In this document: one piece after another, positions 5,173-58,154 of the stretch | Layout of the letters: every line of letters begins with the position of its first letter | Numbering within the stretch: position 1 is the first letter of the stretch | Assembly: GCA_030390025.1 (NCBI GenBank) | Contig: CM059437.1 | Span: 4,216,001-4,280,000 of the forward strand | Origin: Squalus acanthias | Taxonomy: Eukaryota | DNA length: 64,000 nucleotides | Reading direction: 5' to 3' | Position numbers and translations under genes: made by a program | The notes under the pieces: generated by a model | Databases searched by the model: none | The model's input: the letters and a program-made list of their open reading frames with translations, nothing else | What the model was told of the DNA's origin: nothing

Positions 5173-6633
5173 TAATTTCAGAGAGATTGCGAGATGGCGG
5201 AGCGGGAGTCGGTTTTTATCGATAAGTTCCCAATACTGGTAAAACTTTAGTTGCACCAAATTAGTTTAGAACTTTCCACTGATAACTAAATTTTAAAAAT
5301 GGTAAAAGATGCTATGAAACTGAACAGTTTAAAAGCAAAGTTCTTAACAATTGTTAGTTAGAAATATCTTCAAACCTTCACTTTTATCAAAAGGATGAGG
5401 AACAGATAGAATTGTTCTTACCCAGTGGGTTTATCTTGTGCCGACGCTGTTCATGTTTCCATCATGTCCTGGAACTCAAATGAAAGATTTGTTTATCAAA
5501 CAATTAAGATTTTGAAGTTAACACGTAATTTGGGATGTAATGTAAAGTATTTCTTAGCGCAATAATTTTCCCCTAAGGATTGCATGCAACAATGCATATT
5601 ACTAAATGAAACTTCCTTCATTTTTCAGTGCTCCTATATTTTGAGAGCTACGATATTCAATTCTACAACCCAGCATTCTCACCAAACCCATTTTCTGCTA
5701 ACATTGATGGGTTTTATATTCTTGTTATCCTGTGACAGAACACCGTGCTTAGATTGAAATGAGGATCACATTAATTGGGATGGTTTAAATCTCGATTGAC
5801 AGTGTATTAAGTGACATTTAAACATTGCTGCACACGATTTAATGGAGAAAGCGAGGATCATTGTGTCATGCTGACTTGTTTTAGTCAAATAAATACTGAA
5901 AGGGACCAATGTAATATATGGCGTCCGTTGTAAATATGCAATATCAGGAAGGTGCAGCAATCGTTATAAATGTCTACGCTTCTGTGTATCTTTTCTTTAC
6001 AGTCTAAATGATGTTTAAAGCGCGCCACTGGCATTTAAATCGGTTGTATTGAAAATTAAAGCTTGAAGGTCCTTTCAGTGATAAAGAGAAAATTATAAAC
6101 TCTGCACACTTTCTGCTAAAGGCTGGTGCTGCACTGTGTGTTTGCAAAGCTAGTTCTGGTCTGTAAAACAAATTCACCTACAATATTAATCTTTGAGGGT
6201 CAGTTTATTTATACTGGCGAGTCGTTTCAATGTTATATGCAAGTTTAATGTGGATTTCGAAGAGATGGCGAGTGCCTTCATGCCTCGGATTGTATGTTGC
6301 CCTCAATTTAATGGATTTTAAAACTCGAGTGAATAAGTGCAGTTGGATTTGCAGGGTCAGCGTTTAAAGTTACTAGGAACCAAACGGCCTTCGACATCTG
6401 GTCTCATCTGGAAGCCGAGCTGATTTTTCCAAGTTAAAAACTCAGCTCCACAGGTGAAGAATTTAGCACCAGCATAAATGCTAATGAAAACCCAGTAAAA
6501 TGTGTCCCAGAATAAGAGCTGTGGCCACATTAAGGGGTCGGGTATACAACAGCCCGATTGAGTCGGGATCTGCAGTGGAATGTGTTCGATTCTATTGACA
6601 TTAAGTGAAATGCACCATTTTTTTTTTCAGTCC

Positions 6634-6849
6634 GAAACTGAATTTGTCTACCGCTTTTTTTTCACTCACCAAACAATAAGAATTTCGACCTAACGCGTCA
6701 GATAAACTTCAGATTCCTGGATTAAAAGCTGTTGGCCTTTTCTTTGTTTGTGTGGAGTTGGAAGCTCTCTCTCGCTCTCTAGCACCAAATTTGATGTTTG
6801 TTCCAAGAGGCACCCCTGCCTCTGTCTCTTTTTTTCGTCAGCCAGTTGT
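6634..6849 (-). pseudogene. HoxB11-like pseudogene, homeobox (exon 2) remnant
   Basis: Acceptor TGCTAACAG (AG at 6851-6850). Ordered blocks: KKR, C, NKHQIW (6802-6785), LESE (6782-6771), NKEK (6748-6737), QL, SRNL (6721-6710), SD, R*VEI (6695-6681), VKKK. These match Hox11 [57 protein letters not shown], with several frameshifts and a CAG>TAG stop. Confidence 0.8.
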
Positions 6850-7319
6850 CTGTTAGCACATAAAATTTGCACAGACAGGCAATAAAGTGTCTGGCTGCTG
6901 TGTACGCTCCCTATACAACGCCTTGAAAAAAAACACTGCTTTTAAATGCTGCCACAGCACAACCGTGGGATTGATATTTTAGCTTCTACCCGCATTAGAA
7001 TGTATAGTCTCTATATATTTTTAGAAATGCTGACATTTTTTTTTCGTTGGCGGATAGAGATTTTAGAAGAACTCTAAAAACAAACAACACCACTGTGAAA
7101 ACAAATCTGTAAATTGTACTTGATCGTGGGTGTTTGGTGTGGAGTTCTCAAAGTTTAAAGCACCATTAATTAATTTTAATTGTAAATATTCTGTATGGGT
7201 AAAAATCCAGGGTTTTAAAATATAGGATTGATTGGAAAAAAAATCAGTGTCTTGTTGGAATTTCGTTGCCTCTGCTCGCGCTCTGGGCTCTTTATGACCG
7301 TATCTGGGGCGACTGGCTG

Positions 7320-20649: not shown

Positions 20650-21995
20650 GACTGGGACTTGGAGAAGGGGCAGAGGAGATTTACCAGAATGATACTAGGG
20701 ATGAGGGACTTCAGTCATGTGAAGACACTAGAGCAGAGAAGGTTAATGAGAGATTTAATAAAGGTGTTCAACATTATGAAGATTTATGACAGAGTGAATA
20801 ATACGAAATTGTGTCAATTGATGGTGGGTCGGTAATCAGAGAATACAGATTTAAGATAATTGGCAAAAGAACCAGAGGGGAGATGAGGAGAATACTTTTT
20901 ACACAGCGAGTTATGATGATCTGGAATACGCTGCCTGAAAGAGCAGTGGAAGCAGATTCAATCATAACTTTCAGAAGGGAATTGGATAAATACTTGAAAA
21001 GGAAAGAAAAGAAAAGAAAGAACTTCCATTCATACAGCACTTTTCATGACCTTAGGACATCCCAAAGTGCTTCACAGCCAATGAAATATTTTGAAGTGTA
21101 GACGTTGTTGTTATGTAGGAAACGCAGCAGTTCATTTGCGCACAGCAAGCTCCCACATCCAAAATACAACACCTCGGACAGTGCAGCACTTCCTCAGTAC
21201 TGCCCCTCCGACAGTGCAGCACTTCCTCAGTACTGCCCCTCCGACAGTGCAGCACTCCCTCAGTACTGCCCCTCCGACAGTGCAGTGCGCCCTCAGTACT
21301 GTCCCTCCAACAGTGCAGCGCTCCCTCAGTACTGCCCCTCCGACAGTGCAGCGCTCCCTCAGTACTGCCCTTCCGACAGTGCAGCGCTTCCTCAGTACTG
21401 CCCCTCCGACAGTGCAGCACTCCCTCAGTACTGCCCCTCCGACAGTGCAGCACTCCCTCAGTACTGCCCCTCCGACAGTGCAGTGCGCCCTCAGTACTGT
21501 CCCTCCAACAGTGCAGCGCTCCCTCAGTACTGCCCCTCCGACAGTGCAGCGCTCCCTCAGTACTGCCCCTCCGACAGTGCAGCGCTCCCTCAGTACTGCC
21601 CCTTCAACAGTGCAGCGCTCCCTCAGTACTGCCCCTCCAACAGTGCAGCGCTCCCTCAGTACTGGCCCTCCGACAGTGCAGCGCTTCCTCAGTACTGCCC
21701 CTCCGACAGTGCAGCACTCCCTCAGTACTGCCCCTCCGGCAGTGCAGCGCTCCCTCAGTACTGCCCCTCCGACAGTGCAGCGCTCCCTCAGTACTGCACA
21801 AGAGTGTCAGCCGAGATTTTGTGCTCAAGTCTCTGGCGTGGAACCTGAATCTACAACCTTCTGGCCCAGAGGTGAAACTTGCTGGGCTATGGGGAAAGGA
21901 GATGCGGTAAGACTAAGTTGATAGGTGTTTCAAAGAGTGGCCTCAAGCACCTGTTCTGAATGGCCTCCTTCTGTGATGTAAGATTCTATGATGCT
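20650..21995 (+). mobile_element. CR1 3' fragment interrupted by a Deu-SINE (~21005-21870, minus strand)
   Basis: ORFs QRRFTRMILGMR and FTQRVMMIWNTLPERAVEADSI. The CR1 tail resumes at ~21880 and ends in GAATGGCCTCCTTCTGTG...TTCTATGA. Confidence 0.8.
21172..21798. repeat. 33-bp minisatellite, 19 copies, derived from a SINE segment
   Basis: Unit CCTCCGACAGTGCAGCACTCCCTCAGTACTGCC. The same segment occurs once in SINE copies at ~47398-47430 and ~36848-36880. Confidence 0.95.
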
Positions 21996-30415: not shown

Positions 30416-33400
30416 ATGAAATACTTTTGACAATTAAGCGTACATATCTTAGCATGTTCTGTGGACATGCCCTGACCTGTTAATATGTGTCAATCAATGT
30501 TATAAAATAGTTGTCTACGTAAAATATGTCATATGATGTGAAAGTTAACAAGCTGTGCGAAAAATGGGGATACTCGTTTTTATCCAAATGCTTTTGATTT
30601 TTATATCTTGTAGTTAAGTTTTGCTTTATAAAAATAATTGTCATTCTTTATTATAAATTACCTAGATAAATATTGTTCTTAAAGTTGAATGTCACCTGCA
30701 CATGATCTTTTTTATGCTAAAATGACACAATTGCTTCTTAGAATGAATTATACTTGCCGAATTCGCTTCTATCCGGTCTTCACACTGCGCCCATTATATA
30801 CCGTCTACTCTCACTCTAGTTTAGAAATGAAACCCTCAGTATGTAAATAAATTAGCCAAGCTAGGTATCACTTTTAAAAACAATTTAAAAAAAACTAAGT
30901 GAAGCAATTGAACAAGTTGAAACGTGGTACAATTATTACGATGTATTTCTGGATTCTAACACAGAAGCAGTAAATAATTCCACAACTTAATTCAGAAATC
31001 ATGATACAAAATTGAAAGTAAAAACAACACGTTTTTCTCTTTCTTATTATTCTGAAATAAGTTAACAAAATGTCATTAAAATGGCAGCTTTGGGCATTGG
31101 GAAATAACAGGACAGATACTCTGCTCATGAAACAGTATCACCTATTTTCCGCAAGTCGAGCTCGGTGAAACAGATCAGAATGGATCTATTCAATCCTCCT
31201 TGAATGGGTTGGAGTAAACTTAATTTGTTATATTTGTTGATACGGAACGCCTACTGTACGTCATTTTGAGAAGCTGCATTTTGAATCTGTACTCATAAAA
31301 TTGGAAGAAAGAAAGAAAGATAGAAACGACCTCCTGGCCAGTTGAATGTATTTGGAGGAATGAGTTGCAATGGGGCGAATATATTTTTCTCACTGAACAT
31401 TGGTGTGCTGTACTAGTACGGTGAATTATTAATTATAAGTTATAAACGCTGAAATTAATACAACATTTATTAATCGGAAACTATAGCTGATCCTGAAAAT
31501 TGCTATTTATTTGTTCAATGTATTTGTTCAGCTGATATATAGAATAGTTGAAATTGTATTTGTTATATCTGATATTTCTAACTTCTTCATTGCTGATTTT
31601 TAGCTTTTTGTTGTAAGAACTTTATTACTTTATTTTTGGACTTTGGTGAACAGCTGCGAGCTGGACTATATTAAAAGTATAAATAATCATAGCTTTATGG
31701 TCATTATTATAAAGTATAACCCGGCATGGAAAGCAATTTAGATATAAAATTAATGTCAAAGTGAAAACCAGGCTGAACATGATTCTATTACTTACTTACA
31801 CACAGAGAAATATACCACACAAATGTGCACTTACATACCAGAGGCGCACCATAGGTACATGGATGCACATAAAGGACCATATTCACGGAAACTGAAATGT
31901 GCATAGAATAGTGATCACAATTGTTGAGCACGGATAGATTATATTCCAACATTAACATCAAATTATCAAATGATACTGCGTTTTAGTATATGTGCGCTGC
32001 TTAGTAAGACATCAGATTTCATAGTCACCTGTTGGAAGTCAAGTAATAGCACCATGAACCGTGGTAGGATTGATAGCTATTCTAGAGAAAAAGAGAAGAA
32101 AAACTAACAATGTCACTCGGAAATATGGACTTGAGCGGAAAGTCTGTGAGAAAAATATATTCGCCCCATTGCAACTCATTCCTCCAATTACATTCAACTG
32201 GCCACGAGGTCGTTTCTTTTTTTTAACTTTTCTTTCTTTCTTTCTTCCAATGTATTTCCCTTTTTATAGCTGTTCTTATTATTTACTATTTGACAGCCTC
32301 TGGTGTTTCTGTAAAGTATCAATTTATATATATTTTATCTTTTATTTCCCGAATAGATTCACTGATCCACACATATTACGATTGAAAACAAGGCGCAATG
32401 AAATACACACAGTCCCACAAACACAGCCAGTGAAAGGGTGCTCCTGTGCAGATACCGTGCAAGTGAGTCTGTGTAAGAAGGCATGGTCGTTTTATTGACA
32501 AATATATATTTAAGTTGCAAATTGCTTCATCTTGGATCTTTACTGATATTTCTAAAAAACGGACTCGTTCTATCGGCTGATTAATCCAATTACCTTAAGT
32601 TTCAATTATTACCCTGAACCGGGAAGGGCGGGGTTGGGGGGGGGGGGGGCAGATTGTGCTGCACCGGCCCCAAATCCAAATTAGCGACTGTATAGAAGGT
32701 ATGCTTGATTAACTCAGAAACGAAATAAATGTCTTATCAATTCAAAGTAGATTACTGAAAGAAATCATATCTTCTAGCTTTGGTCTGCAAATGACACTGG
32801 TTACATGTTTCAGTTCTAATCGCATATACCAATACATTTCAAACAGCTGTAAGCTTGTCGCTTAGATATTCCAGACAAGTGCCTCGTGGGGGAGGGGCAC
32901 TACCGCAAACACGGCTGTTTATTTTCCTCATGCCACATTCAGATTTAAGACATGGGTCAACATCTATTGCTAACCAAAGGAGATCTTGCCCATCATTTCC
33001 CTTAATCCTGATAAATACGGAGCTGTATCATCAATCGATTTGGATGTCCACAGACTGCTTATAAATTAATGTGTGATACATTTGGTCTCCGGCTCATTGA
33101 TTCTGCCTTGCTGCAGCTAAATCTAAATTGAACCACTTTGTCTTATCATTTATTTTTACAAGACGTTGTTAGTGGAACAGACATGGCCGACATGTGTTGC
33201 TTGTGATCATTAATGTGCTGAGCAATTCATAATTGAGGGATTATTTTATGCTTGGTTTAAGATTAAAAAAACAAGCTGTTTTTTTCTGGATCGGGATTTA
33301 TATGTATCTGGAGTCAATAGGACGCGATTAAGTACATTCAGTGCAATGGGAACAGGAGAGGACCTGAGACGTTAAAATTCTATATCTATTTGTAGGTAAT

Positions 33401-50496: not shown

Positions 50497-50662
50497 CATT
50501 TAAAATATATTTTCAAAGATAGGGAATCTGAAATTAAAGTATTGATTTATTTTGCCTTTGGTAATCGCAACGCTTAAACATGTGAATAAACTAATGCACT
50601 AATTGTAACTGAGCGTCTGACACCAAGATCAGCTGCTGGGTATATATTGTTCTGTATCAAAC
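50497..50662 (-). pseudogene. HoxB12-like pseudogene, homeobox (exon 2) remnant
   Basis: Acceptor TTTGACAG|GTTTG (AG at 50664-50663). 50644-50570 reads YTQQLILVSDAQLQLVH*FIHMFKR versus Hox12 [24 protein letters not shown], with an in-frame TAG at 50593-50591 (from GAG). Weaker traces of helices 2-3 follow, including TTT GAA AAT (FEN for FQN) at 50517-50509. Confidence 0.6.
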
Positions 50663-51187
50663 CTGTCAAACTAGGCGAAAGTGCTAAGTTACATTTACAA
50701 TTAACCCGTGATCCACTGATCTTATTGACCTACACGTTTAAGTGGTTCCAATCAAAATACAATATAGTTACTGGATGTGTTTAGGTTATATTCATTGTGT
50801 TGGTGAAACTTTACTTTTGTTTTATTCCCTGTGGGCGAAGAGCAGAAACAGGCAATTTTGAACGAGTGAAGAATATGTGGGGATAATTTTCTGAAATTCA
50901 AATGGGAGGGAGACAATCGCCGATACGAACTGTATAATCAATTAATGAAATAAAAACACCGTTTGAATCAGTTTCCGGTCAAGATACATTTCCCATTCGT
51001 GTTAGTATGGTGAATATAGTTAAGAATTTAATTAAACCGCACTTACACACGATACCGTTTGTATTTGTTTTAAAACCAACCAACTTAAATTAAACTGAAT
51101 TAAGGGCGGATTTTGTCCTCGGTGTATCTTCGTGAACTAATAGCGTCTTTCTTTGCAATTTCTTATCAATTATGTTTCTTTTTGTCC

Positions 51188-51310
51188 TGGGGGTGAATCC
51201 AGAAGTACCCGGCCAGAAGGCTGTGAGATAGAAAAGCTAAAAGTGCTACAGCCATTTGTGAAAACAACAGGGACAAAGAAATCTCTGAAAGCCAAGACTT
51301 GCTTTTGGAC
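51188..51310 (-). pseudogene. HoxB12-like pseudogene, exon 1 remnant
   Basis: 51283-51188 reads DFFVPVVFTNGCSTFSFSISQPSGRVLLDSPP. It aligns without gaps to the Hox12 N-terminus (HoxC12 [32 protein letters not shown]; HoxD12 [32 protein letters not shown]; recalled). Many mismatches are single-base codon changes. No start codon is retained at the expected position. Confidence 0.65.
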
Positions 51311-54681: not shown

Positions 54682-54946
54682 ATACAGGGCGCGTGTTTGT
54701 GTGTGGGGAGGGGAAATTACCGTAGCAATGGTTCTTCAGTCAATTGGCTGGGCAATATTTTCAAATATCAAAAGAGAACATAAGGCGGAAAGCGCTGCAG
54801 CCAAACAATTATTTGTTTAATGAATCGGGATTAAATTTTTCCTTCATTTTGGACTATTTCTGTGCGAGCTCGGTACAAACTCAGCCTACATGTTTAAACA
54901 AAGGCTGGCCGTCCAAGCGGCAGTGCTTGTGTTATGGAACCATTAG

Positions 54947-54960
54947 CCAGAAGATGGCGC
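54947..54960 (+). promoter_or_regulatory. CTCF/YY1-like site 3' of HoxB13
   Basis: CCAGAAGATGGCGC is a CTCF core with one mismatch and contains the YY1 motif AAGATGGCG. Confidence 0.5.
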
Positions 54961-55033
54961 ACTTGCTCTACTCATGCTGGCCCTGCCCAGATCAGAGCAC
55001 CAAAAAAGCGTTCGATTATTCATGAGCTGCTAG

Positions 55034-55082
55034 AAGTCAAGATCACTGACGAAGTCGCACGTGACTGCCAAGGTCAAGGTCA
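55034..55082 (+). promoter_or_regulatory. Perfect DR0 (NR6A1/GCNF-type), second DR0-like site and E-box
   Basis: AAGTCAAGATCA (55034-55045), CACGTGAC (55058-55065), AGGTCAAGGTCA (55071-55082). Confidence 0.55.
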
Positions 55083-55402
55083 AAGGCTTATCAATGCGAT
55101 TGGATTTGAGTATGCAAAGGTGGGAGCTGCTTGTTACTTGCTCACAAAGTCACCCACTCACCCCCACCCGATTCATACACCCCAAGGAACACACCCCAAC
55201 ATAAACAAATCCACACCCTATTGCCAGCAGGGTTGCACAAACATATATCCTTACACCAACAGGCACATATGCACCCCTATATCAATAAAAGTACATACGT
55301 GATCCTCTAACCTGCGTTTTGCATTTACCTTATGCCATTAAACCCATAGTCCGCGGTGAAGTAGTTAAGTGCCAGTTATTTTGTAGAAGGCGACAGAAAA
55401 AC

Positions 55403-56796: not shown

Positions 56797-57044
56797 TTAA
56801 GGTGTGTTGGTTTTTACTTTCGCAATGACTTTCTTTTCCTTGACTCTCCTGTTTTGAAACCAGATGGTGATCTGCCGTTCGCTCAGGTTCGTAGCCGCCG
56901 AGATCTTCCTTCTCTTGTCTTTCGTGATGAATTTATTTGTTGCATATTCCCTCTCCAGTTCTTTGAGTTGGACTTTGGTATAAGGGATCCTCTTCTTCCT
57001 TCCGCGCCGAAAGGAACTACCATCCTGTTGGTGCGCTGCAACAT
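56797..57044 (-). CDS. hoxb13: HoxB13 exon 2 (homeodomain)
   Basis: [81 protein letters not shown] and AKVK point to B13 rather than A13/C13/D13. Acceptor CAGCAG|AT follows a pyrimidine-rich tract. The joined CDS is 676+248=924 nt, in frame. Confidence 0.95.
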
Positions 57045-57478: not shown

Positions 57479-58154
57479 CTGCAAGTGTGGATTTCCAGAG
57501 GTGTCCCGGCTGTGCTTGTTCCTTAGAACAGTACATCTGGCTGTTCCAGCCATTGAGGGCCCAGGGCTGGTAGCCGTCCATAGGTAACAAGGCTTCGTGC
57601 CTCGGCTCTCCCGCGCCACTGATAGTTTGCACTACAGAAACATCTAGATAACTTGGCATTGGTTGGTAGGGACTCGCATAGCCGTGGTAAAAGGCGAATT
57701 CCTTCGGCCGCCCTGGGTATTCATCGGTGGGGACAGGACTGTCCATGTACTTGTCTCCTGGGTAACTAGATAGGGCGGCAGGCTGGGTGCAAGGCTTGAT
57801 GGAACTTCGCCCCATTCGACAGGAATAGTAGCCGCTGCCGAAATATCCGTATGGTAAAGGGGCGGCGGTGGAGGCCTGGGGCACCGGGCATGGGGTGCAT
57901 TGCTTGCCGGGCTCCACCACCCCAGAGCCGGAGACGTCGACTGTTGAGTAGCCAGAGCCGTGAACCAAAGGTGAAGGATGAGCCCCGAGCGCAGAGTGAG
58001 CCATCAAATTCCTGCACTGATTCGCAGAGAAATTCCCAGCACCAACAAATCCTTCCATTGCCCCGCTATTCTTATTAATCTCATCCGAGTTGTTTTCATA
58101 CAGGAACATTACAGTGTCGACCCAGCGCGGTTTGAGAAGCAGTGACACTGTCAT
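57479..58154 (-). CDS. hoxb13: HoxB13 exon 1 (676 nt coding, phase-1 intron follows)
   Basis: [24 protein letters not shown]...[14 protein letters not shown]...KEFAFY...YLDVSVV...EPRHE...[19 protein letters not shown]...LWKS contains the Hox13 N-terminal motifs. Donor GCAG|GTAACA, with GT at 57478-57477. Confidence 0.96.

Follow-up and report, generated by a model that had tools for sequence, protein, structure and literature searches.

A candidate 5′ relic of a lost HoxB12 gene in the HoxB13 spacer of Squalus acanthias

To our knowledge, no HoxB12 or HoxA12 gene is known in jawed vertebrates, group 12 being confined to the C and D clusters. The named Hox12 proteins used as comparators in this study are consistent with such a distribution. 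In a profile search with two Hox12 N-termini (36 representatives, 23 of them read), the 10 entries looked up included no Hox12 from a jawless fish or from a B or A cluster, and the 7 that were named were all HoxC12 or HoxD12. For the clusters that they discuss, the accessible portions of PMC3707753 and bioRxiv 2024.07.20.604409 agree on the absence of both B12 and A12.

The closest described systems are relics of lost Hox genes that stayed in place in slowly evolving genomes. Pseudogenes of A14 and B14 are reported for the elephant shark and a remnant of D12 for a caecilian, in the parts of PMC3707753 and PMC4470032 that were available; the groups or clusters concerned have living orthologues in other jawed vertebrates. 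The mouse HoxB spacer, which is devoid of b10-b12, keeps its CTCF sites, and the authors describe it as if the genes had been deleted and the sites left behind; the available part of that account (bioRxiv 10.1101/2024.07.20.604409) contains no coding relics. Relics of B11 or B12 are not mentioned in the accessible text of PMC3038165, PMC6307173, PMC8713815 and PMC2746220. Among the literature matches listed, there was no published report of either (supplements and subscription papers could contain one), and the terms “HoxB12” and “pseudogene” occurred together only in PMC13740313 which, as far as its available text goes, deals with mouse NODAL signalling. The locus described here is possibly a fresh case of the known type, a lost Hox gene left in place. 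It is far weaker than the elephant shark and caecilian pseudogenes and has no homeobox.

The window, i.e. the whole stretch of 64,000 nucleotides of Squalus acanthias DNA that was analysed, is the 5′ end of the HoxB cluster and covers the same HoxB9/10-B13 spacer as in the mouse. HoxB13 is intact and spans 58154-56797 on the minus strand, the strand on which the candidate also lies. Its exon 1 (57479..58154) has an open frame, with 64% and 50% identity to exon 1 of A13 and D13 from the same genome, and exon 2 with the homeobox is found at 56797..57044. The name HoxB13 rests on cluster context; among the 120 homeodomain relatives listed, those with names are Hox13 proteins and the rest are unnamed homeobox proteins. 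Searched against its own genome, the homeodomain gives 42 matches, which include clusters on contigs C3, C4 and C13. Two repeat features of the window were seen in passing: a tandem array of ~30-base units at 21050-21900, which is a repeat and not a gene and has long open frames in every direction, and two near-duplicate stretches of a few hundred bases each at ~31300-32200, noticed in translation.

Comparators from the same genome, taken from 16 stretches, were D10-D14, A10, A11, A13, B10 and HoxC12 (contig C1741), and 160 Hox12 proteins were added to these. Exon 1 of the dogfish's own D12 has 93-98% identity to named shark proteins. HoxC12 is apparently intact and GC-rich (5542-6940 of stretch L010) and is located on a small, repeat-filled contig of 22.8 kb; its exon 1 is 50-57% identical to C12 of other sharks. 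Older papers regarded the C cluster as lost in elasmobranchs; contrary to this view, C12 of other sharks is present in the database. A HoxD14-like gene with a split homeobox lies between Evx2 and D13 (L004 9419-7654, minus strand).

The candidate is found at 51310-51188 on the minus strand and corresponds to the first 41 codons of Hox12 exon 1. The sequence-only reading, made from the letters of the window, had reported an ungapped likeness of 32 codons to the Hox12 N-terminus on the gene strand. The likeness is indeed present, and it runs without gaps over 39-41 codons from the start-codon position, 51310. Codon 1 is GTC and not ATG. The segment is identical to the C12 consensus at 11 of 41 residues and to the D12 consensus at 6 of 41, and 17 further residues are one base away from C12. 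At the DNA level, 47 of 123 bases are shared with the dogfish's own C12; third codon positions match both C12 and D12 at chance level (9/41 for C12). The frame of the candidate is open for 93 codons. GTC at codon 1, a stop after codon 45 and the absence of a homeobox distinguish it from a functional HoxB12. The match ends just before the most conserved motif of exon 1, with z falling to -4.1 when 56 codons are compared, and there is none beyond ~codon 41-46. The 123 bases hold no indel, which is unusual for a relic of such age; the homeobox remnant at 6.7 kb (see below) has several.

BLAST and HMM tools expect conservative change, and two decay-aware tests were therefore built. The first applies a neutral substitution matrix to a codon profile, permits frameshifts and scores in bits; the second simply counts the minimum number of base changes that lead to a consensus peptide. 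By this count, the candidate needs 43 changes to reach the C12 consensus over 41 codons. It ranks first of 48,717 windows (z -5.8), of which the next best needs 50 and the mean is 68.5. None of 600 shuffles at fixed length matched the candidate; 5 of 400 did when length and paralogue were left free, and 14 of 1500 order-shuffled decoy peptides equalled it on real DNA. Across 431,166 windows of real DNA, only the two true Hox12 starts besides the candidate fell below 48 changes. Under a C12-only decay model, the candidate scores 25.0 bits, a value reached by 2 of 337 shuffles, or 4 of 337 after correction for the best of three models. Apart from the two real Hox12 genes, nothing in ~435 kb of real shark DNA, taken on both strands, scores higher than the candidate. 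For nine other Hox N-termini, the best z across the interval was no better than -3.9 to -5.0, and they were at chance level at the candidate.

The likeness is specific to C12. Each of 14 individual C12 proteins lies 41-47 minimal changes away, against 52-61 for 12 D12 proteins; with the D12 consensus the candidate ranks 79th, which is not significant, and the D12-only model gives 13.0 bits, reached by all 337 shuffles. The better match to C12 might be due to its N-terminus having changed less, as pairwise likeness over the first 45 columns is 89% among C12 proteins and 78% among D12 proteins. A mixed C12/D12 profile was not significant over the 49-kb interval between B13 and the B11 remnant (43/320, 35/313, 57/407 and 50/337 shuffles). 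Within the nearly repeat-free 8.3 kb that adjoin B13, 16 of 1486 shuffles reached the candidate with the mixed profile. At distances of 0.5 and 0.8, this profile gave the candidate the best score in the window, both strands included; at 0.3 it came third on its own strand. A two-sequence model made from the dogfish's own C12 and D12 gave 15.8 bits and did not rank the candidate at the top. The likeness thus appears to exceed chance to a modest degree, with P ~0.01-0.02 over the 49-kb interval and against C12 only; this value corrects for length and choice of paralogue, not for every setting tried or for a reader's freedom to seek other missing genes, and the C12-only test was picked after the data had been seen.

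The place of the candidate, on the gene strand between B13 and the B11 remnant, had been called colinear, and this description holds: it lies behind a conserved non-coding element (54942..55086) that has paralogues in the HoxD13-HoxD12 interval and downstream of HoxA13. In local DNA alignment, the element at 55086-54942 scores 2435 against the D cluster (null maximum 1959) and 3101 against the A cluster (null maximum 2401), with 12 shuffles each. Its counterparts are at 5325-5219 of L001 and 5974-5870 of L006, so that an element of this kind is found just 3′ of Hox13 in A, B and D; it contains repeated TGACCT-type motifs and a CTCF-like site (54947-54960 in the window) in the same orientation. 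The start of the candidate is 3637 bp past the element, that of D12 2869 bp. From the B13 stop to candidate codon 1 there are 5487 bp and from the D13 stop to the D12 start 5538 bp, a near-equality that is partly luck given sub-intervals of 1850+3637 and 2669+2869. HoxD12 (L001) is thus like the candidate in the order Hox13, conserved element, Hox12 start, and in similar spacing; its sequence match is not significant. HoxC12 of jawed vertebrates resembles the candidate in the codon pattern of N-terminal residues 1-41 and in its place behind Hox13 on the gene strand, and differs in that the candidate lacks an ATG, a homeobox, promoter likeness and any sign of selection, and sits in the B cluster. 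The candidate is bracketed on the upstream side only, no downstream anchor having been found near it. A search of the A13-A11 interval for an A12 relic found none.

Four CTCF-like sites in one orientation are found in the window (15967, 22917, 23037 and 54947, plus strand), where 0.49 are expected and none of 100 shuffles reaches 4; the pattern used is what we take to be that of CTCF. The mouse HoxB spacer has been reported to show such an arrangement. All four sites lie outside the candidate.

On the downstream side, the interval is bounded by a homeobox remnant at 6650..6856 (minus strand), which also served as a positive control. It had been named as a B11 remnant before, and the remnant is real. 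Aligned to exon 2 of D11 it scores 2717 against 1192±163 for shuffled sequence (0/100), and to exon 2 of A11, A10 and D10 it scores 2008, 2671 and 2350, in each case with 0 of 100 shuffles. It is probably a pseudo-HoxB11, but a Hox10 model gives 31.0 bits (0/40 shuffles), against 21.8 bits under Hox11, and the remnant opens with Hox9/10-type NWLT codons that are absent from living A11 and D11. At 7813-7460 on the minus strand, there is a match to the D11 promoter (7813-7747; 2/100) and a weak trace of exon 1 at the expected offset (13.8 bits). The 6856-6650 remnant is a much clearer relic than the HoxB12 candidate. Elsewhere, a homeobox remnant of 43 bits is found upstream of HoxA13 (L009, near 5899, minus strand) and is probably a HoxA14 pseudogene, as in the elephant shark. 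Upstream of HoxB13, where a B14 relic would lie, the peak near 6150 of L015 (minus strand) has 19.8 bits, which is chance level.

The candidate is a single-copy sequence. Its only match in the genome is itself (in a search that skips very common words), and the 50-52 kb part of the window matched neither other parts of the window nor the comparison loci. Repeats make up 3% of the stretch at 48.5-56.8 kb, compared with 21% of the whole interval. Parts of the region are present in fourteen sequencing runs from six studies, with no RNA run among those listed. Four runs were compared: X6 and X9, from two related sharks, cover the region from end to end, and X13 and X14 do not reach the exon-1 segment. 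Across the region, X6 differs from the window at 49 positions and X9 at 71 (4-6% divergence). In X6, 6 of 123 positions differ in the exon-1 segment and 49 of 1101 overall, and 9 of the 10 listed changes in the open frame of the candidate alter the residue in this one relative; the 40 differences listed, out of 93, all carry X6 letters and so exclude the private changes of X9. Given background divergence and a predominance of residue-altering changes, the exon-1 segment is not under selection.

A check whether a consensus of relatives converges on Hox12 had also been suggested. For the two relatives, at 4-6% divergence and with 40 of 93 differences listed, the two differences common to X6 and X9 in exon 1 leave its score where it was (21.1 to 21.0), and the proposed exon 2 moves away. 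X9 has 16 extra bases that extend the match toward the next Hox12 motif by 2.2 bits; these were discarded as support, since same-letter shuffles do as well in 342 of 1000 cases (random letters in 64 of 1000).

On balance, we lean toward reading 51310-51188 as a neutrally decaying 5′ relic of a lost HoxB12 gene that has no function now. The earlier claim of a decayed HoxB12 is in this way retained for its exon-1 half, at moderate strength, and given up for its exon-2 half, which is absent.

The main competitor is chance: the segment might be no more than unique intergenic sequence in the HoxB13 spacer, where a reader in search of missing Hox genes took the best among many registers. We consider this a substantial possibility, somewhat below an even chance. 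Every standard search was negative at the locus. With 19 Hox exons of the same genome as queries, neither tblastn at E<=2 nor blastn at E<=0.5 found a C12 or D12 match there; exon 1 of D13 and of D14 matched it at E 1.4-1.5, which therefore indicates the chance level. Profile HMMs, which had been suggested as a check on both segments, gave non-significant scores for exon 1 and exon 2 alike. Protein HMMs built on a selection of 26 Hox12 proteins and on the full set of 160 placed the best pieces of the locus at 477/1388 and 116/1800, with negative scores. In DNA alignment of promoter plus exon 1, 28 and 61 of 100 shuffles reached the observed values, Rfam gave 0 matches over the window, and the ESM Atlas returned no usable match for the 46-residue peptide, an uninformative outcome.

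Nor was a promoter, a downstream motif or a homeobox seen, which also fits a chance origin. The candidate promoter did not align to those of C12 and D12 (289/500 and 227/500 shuffles reach the score), while the latter two align to each other with 0 of 500 shuffles. This test is limited in power, as the promoter of the 6.7-kb remnant aligns to that of D11 (2/100) and not to that of A11 (56/100). Around the candidate start, CpG density is not out of the ordinary for the neighbourhood. The remainder of C12 exon 1 has a weak match at 49644-49405 (3/100, one of eight tests), which was discounted as too distant. Chance is further favoured by the dependence of significance on the C12-only model, the mixed and D12 models being non-significant over the interval, by the 19.7-23.7 bits that real Hox-cluster DNA yields in chance matches, and by the failure of the relatives' letters to shift the candidate toward Hox12. 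Against it stand three different nulls, which agree on ~0.01-0.02 after correction, and the fact that the best window of the entire interval begins at codon 1-3, a few kb behind the 13-12 element, where a Hox12 gene belongs.

The sequence-only reading had gone further and joined to exon 1 at 51310-51188 an exon 2 from 50662 (50570..50662, minus strand). A two-exon fossil of this kind is improbable, and the model is largely refuted. Order and strand are right, the letters of the proposed exon 2 are present 526 bp past the exon-1 segment, and the D12 homeodomain is matched by two short blocks, at 10.4 and 10.2 bits. The likeness does not exceed chance: in the register first described, the blocks and a part worth 0.9 bits, less 9.7 bits for a one-codon insertion, sum to 11.8 bits, below the local chance maxima of 14-15 bits, and 58 of 100 shuffles do as well once gaps are penalised less. 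The opening G-L codons and the YTQQ codons, which had been taken as a single Hox12 exon-2 start, are in different frames, since 18 bases separate acceptor and Tyr here and 50 in the dogfish's own D12, a deficit of 32 bases. Group-12 genes have two exons, with the intron directly ahead of the PW motif; from start to acceptor there are 1159 bp in C12 and 1323 in D12 of the same genome, and 648 bp here. The model would thus need ~500-700 bp to have been lost between start and acceptor and 32 more after it, an extra codon, and a missing helix 3; of the homeobox, the conserved second half is absent. In both X6 and X9, the Tyr codon (50642) is a stop and the base at 50662, after the acceptor, is another one; both of these sites, at which the two relatives agree, are further from Hox12.

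A homeobox was not found by any approach. In 51187-48600, the best score was reached by 30 to 86 of 100 shuffles, and by 88 and 89 of 100 at the DNA level, and over the 49-kb interval by 33 and 36 of 60. The methods have power, as they find the remnant at 6856-6650 and the one of 43 bits upstream of A13. A joint score for exon 1 and exon 2 was at chance (225/320 and 131/313 shuffles). In simulations of decay at d 0.3 and 0.5, a homeobox of <=15 bits was seen in 0 of 60 runs under each of four settings, and an exon 1 of 18-35 bits left a homeobox with a median above 40 bits. A homeobox as eroded as this never accompanied such an exon 1, and exon 2 would therefore, if exon 1 is real, have been deleted rather than worn away. 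The segment at 50570-50662 is judged to be a chance likeness.

A real likeness with another origin, either a copied HoxC12 fragment or a short gene or element under constraint with a fortuitous likeness to HoxC12, would account for a C12-specific match in a 93-codon open frame, but is very unlikely given that only 47 of 123 bases are identical to the dogfish's own C12 with third positions at chance (9/41), that insertion at exactly this place and in this orientation would be a further coincidence, that background divergence and 9 of 10 changes non-synonymous speak against constraint, that the window has no Rfam match, and that the CTCF-like sites lie elsewhere.

If the relic of HoxB12 is genuine, we infer the following course of events. 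HoxB12 would have been switched off once the B cluster existed, or shortly before that. Everything past ~codon 41-46, with the remainder of exon 1 and the homeobox, may then have disappeared through one deletion or several, and the surviving piece would have taken ~0.4-0.5 substitutions per site. The score of exon 1 peaks at d 0.4-0.5, and a D12 gene decayed in simulation to d 0.5 has a median of 44 changes.

The relation of the four clusters bears on how the C12 likeness is read. They are grouped as A/B versus C/D in the available text of PMC10972751, and as A,D versus B,C in that of its preprint on the hagfish, PMC10153176, a grouping under which a C12-like relic would be expected. The published A/B versus C/D grouping replaces that of the preprint, and likeness to C12 is therefore not counted as support by way of the latter. 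With A/B versus C/D, there is no reason for a relic in B to be nearer to C, and one earlier loss is the simpler history.

What the Hox cluster contained before the first vertebrate genome doubling, and between the first and the second, is deduced from the surviving genes alone. With Hox12 known in C and D only and A/B grouped against C/D, two readings are simple: the A/B ancestor lost the gene once, or the gene originated on the C/D branch. We see about even chances for a different history, in which the shark genome still carries legible remains of HoxB12. A group-12 gene would then have been present on the A/B side of the first doubling and would probably have persisted past the split of A from B, the present absence of Hox12 from the two clusters being due to two losses. 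B11 and B12 would have decayed in place to give the HoxB13 spacer, leaving two relics that can still be seen. A HoxB12 relic would have no bearing on present function. If real, it would directly attest Hox12 in the A/B line, allow the loss of the gene to be dated against that of B11, and explain the origin of the long insulating spacer in front of HoxB13. Coding traces ~450-500 million years old would then also be readable in sharks by decay-aware methods, beyond the reach of BLAST and HMMER.
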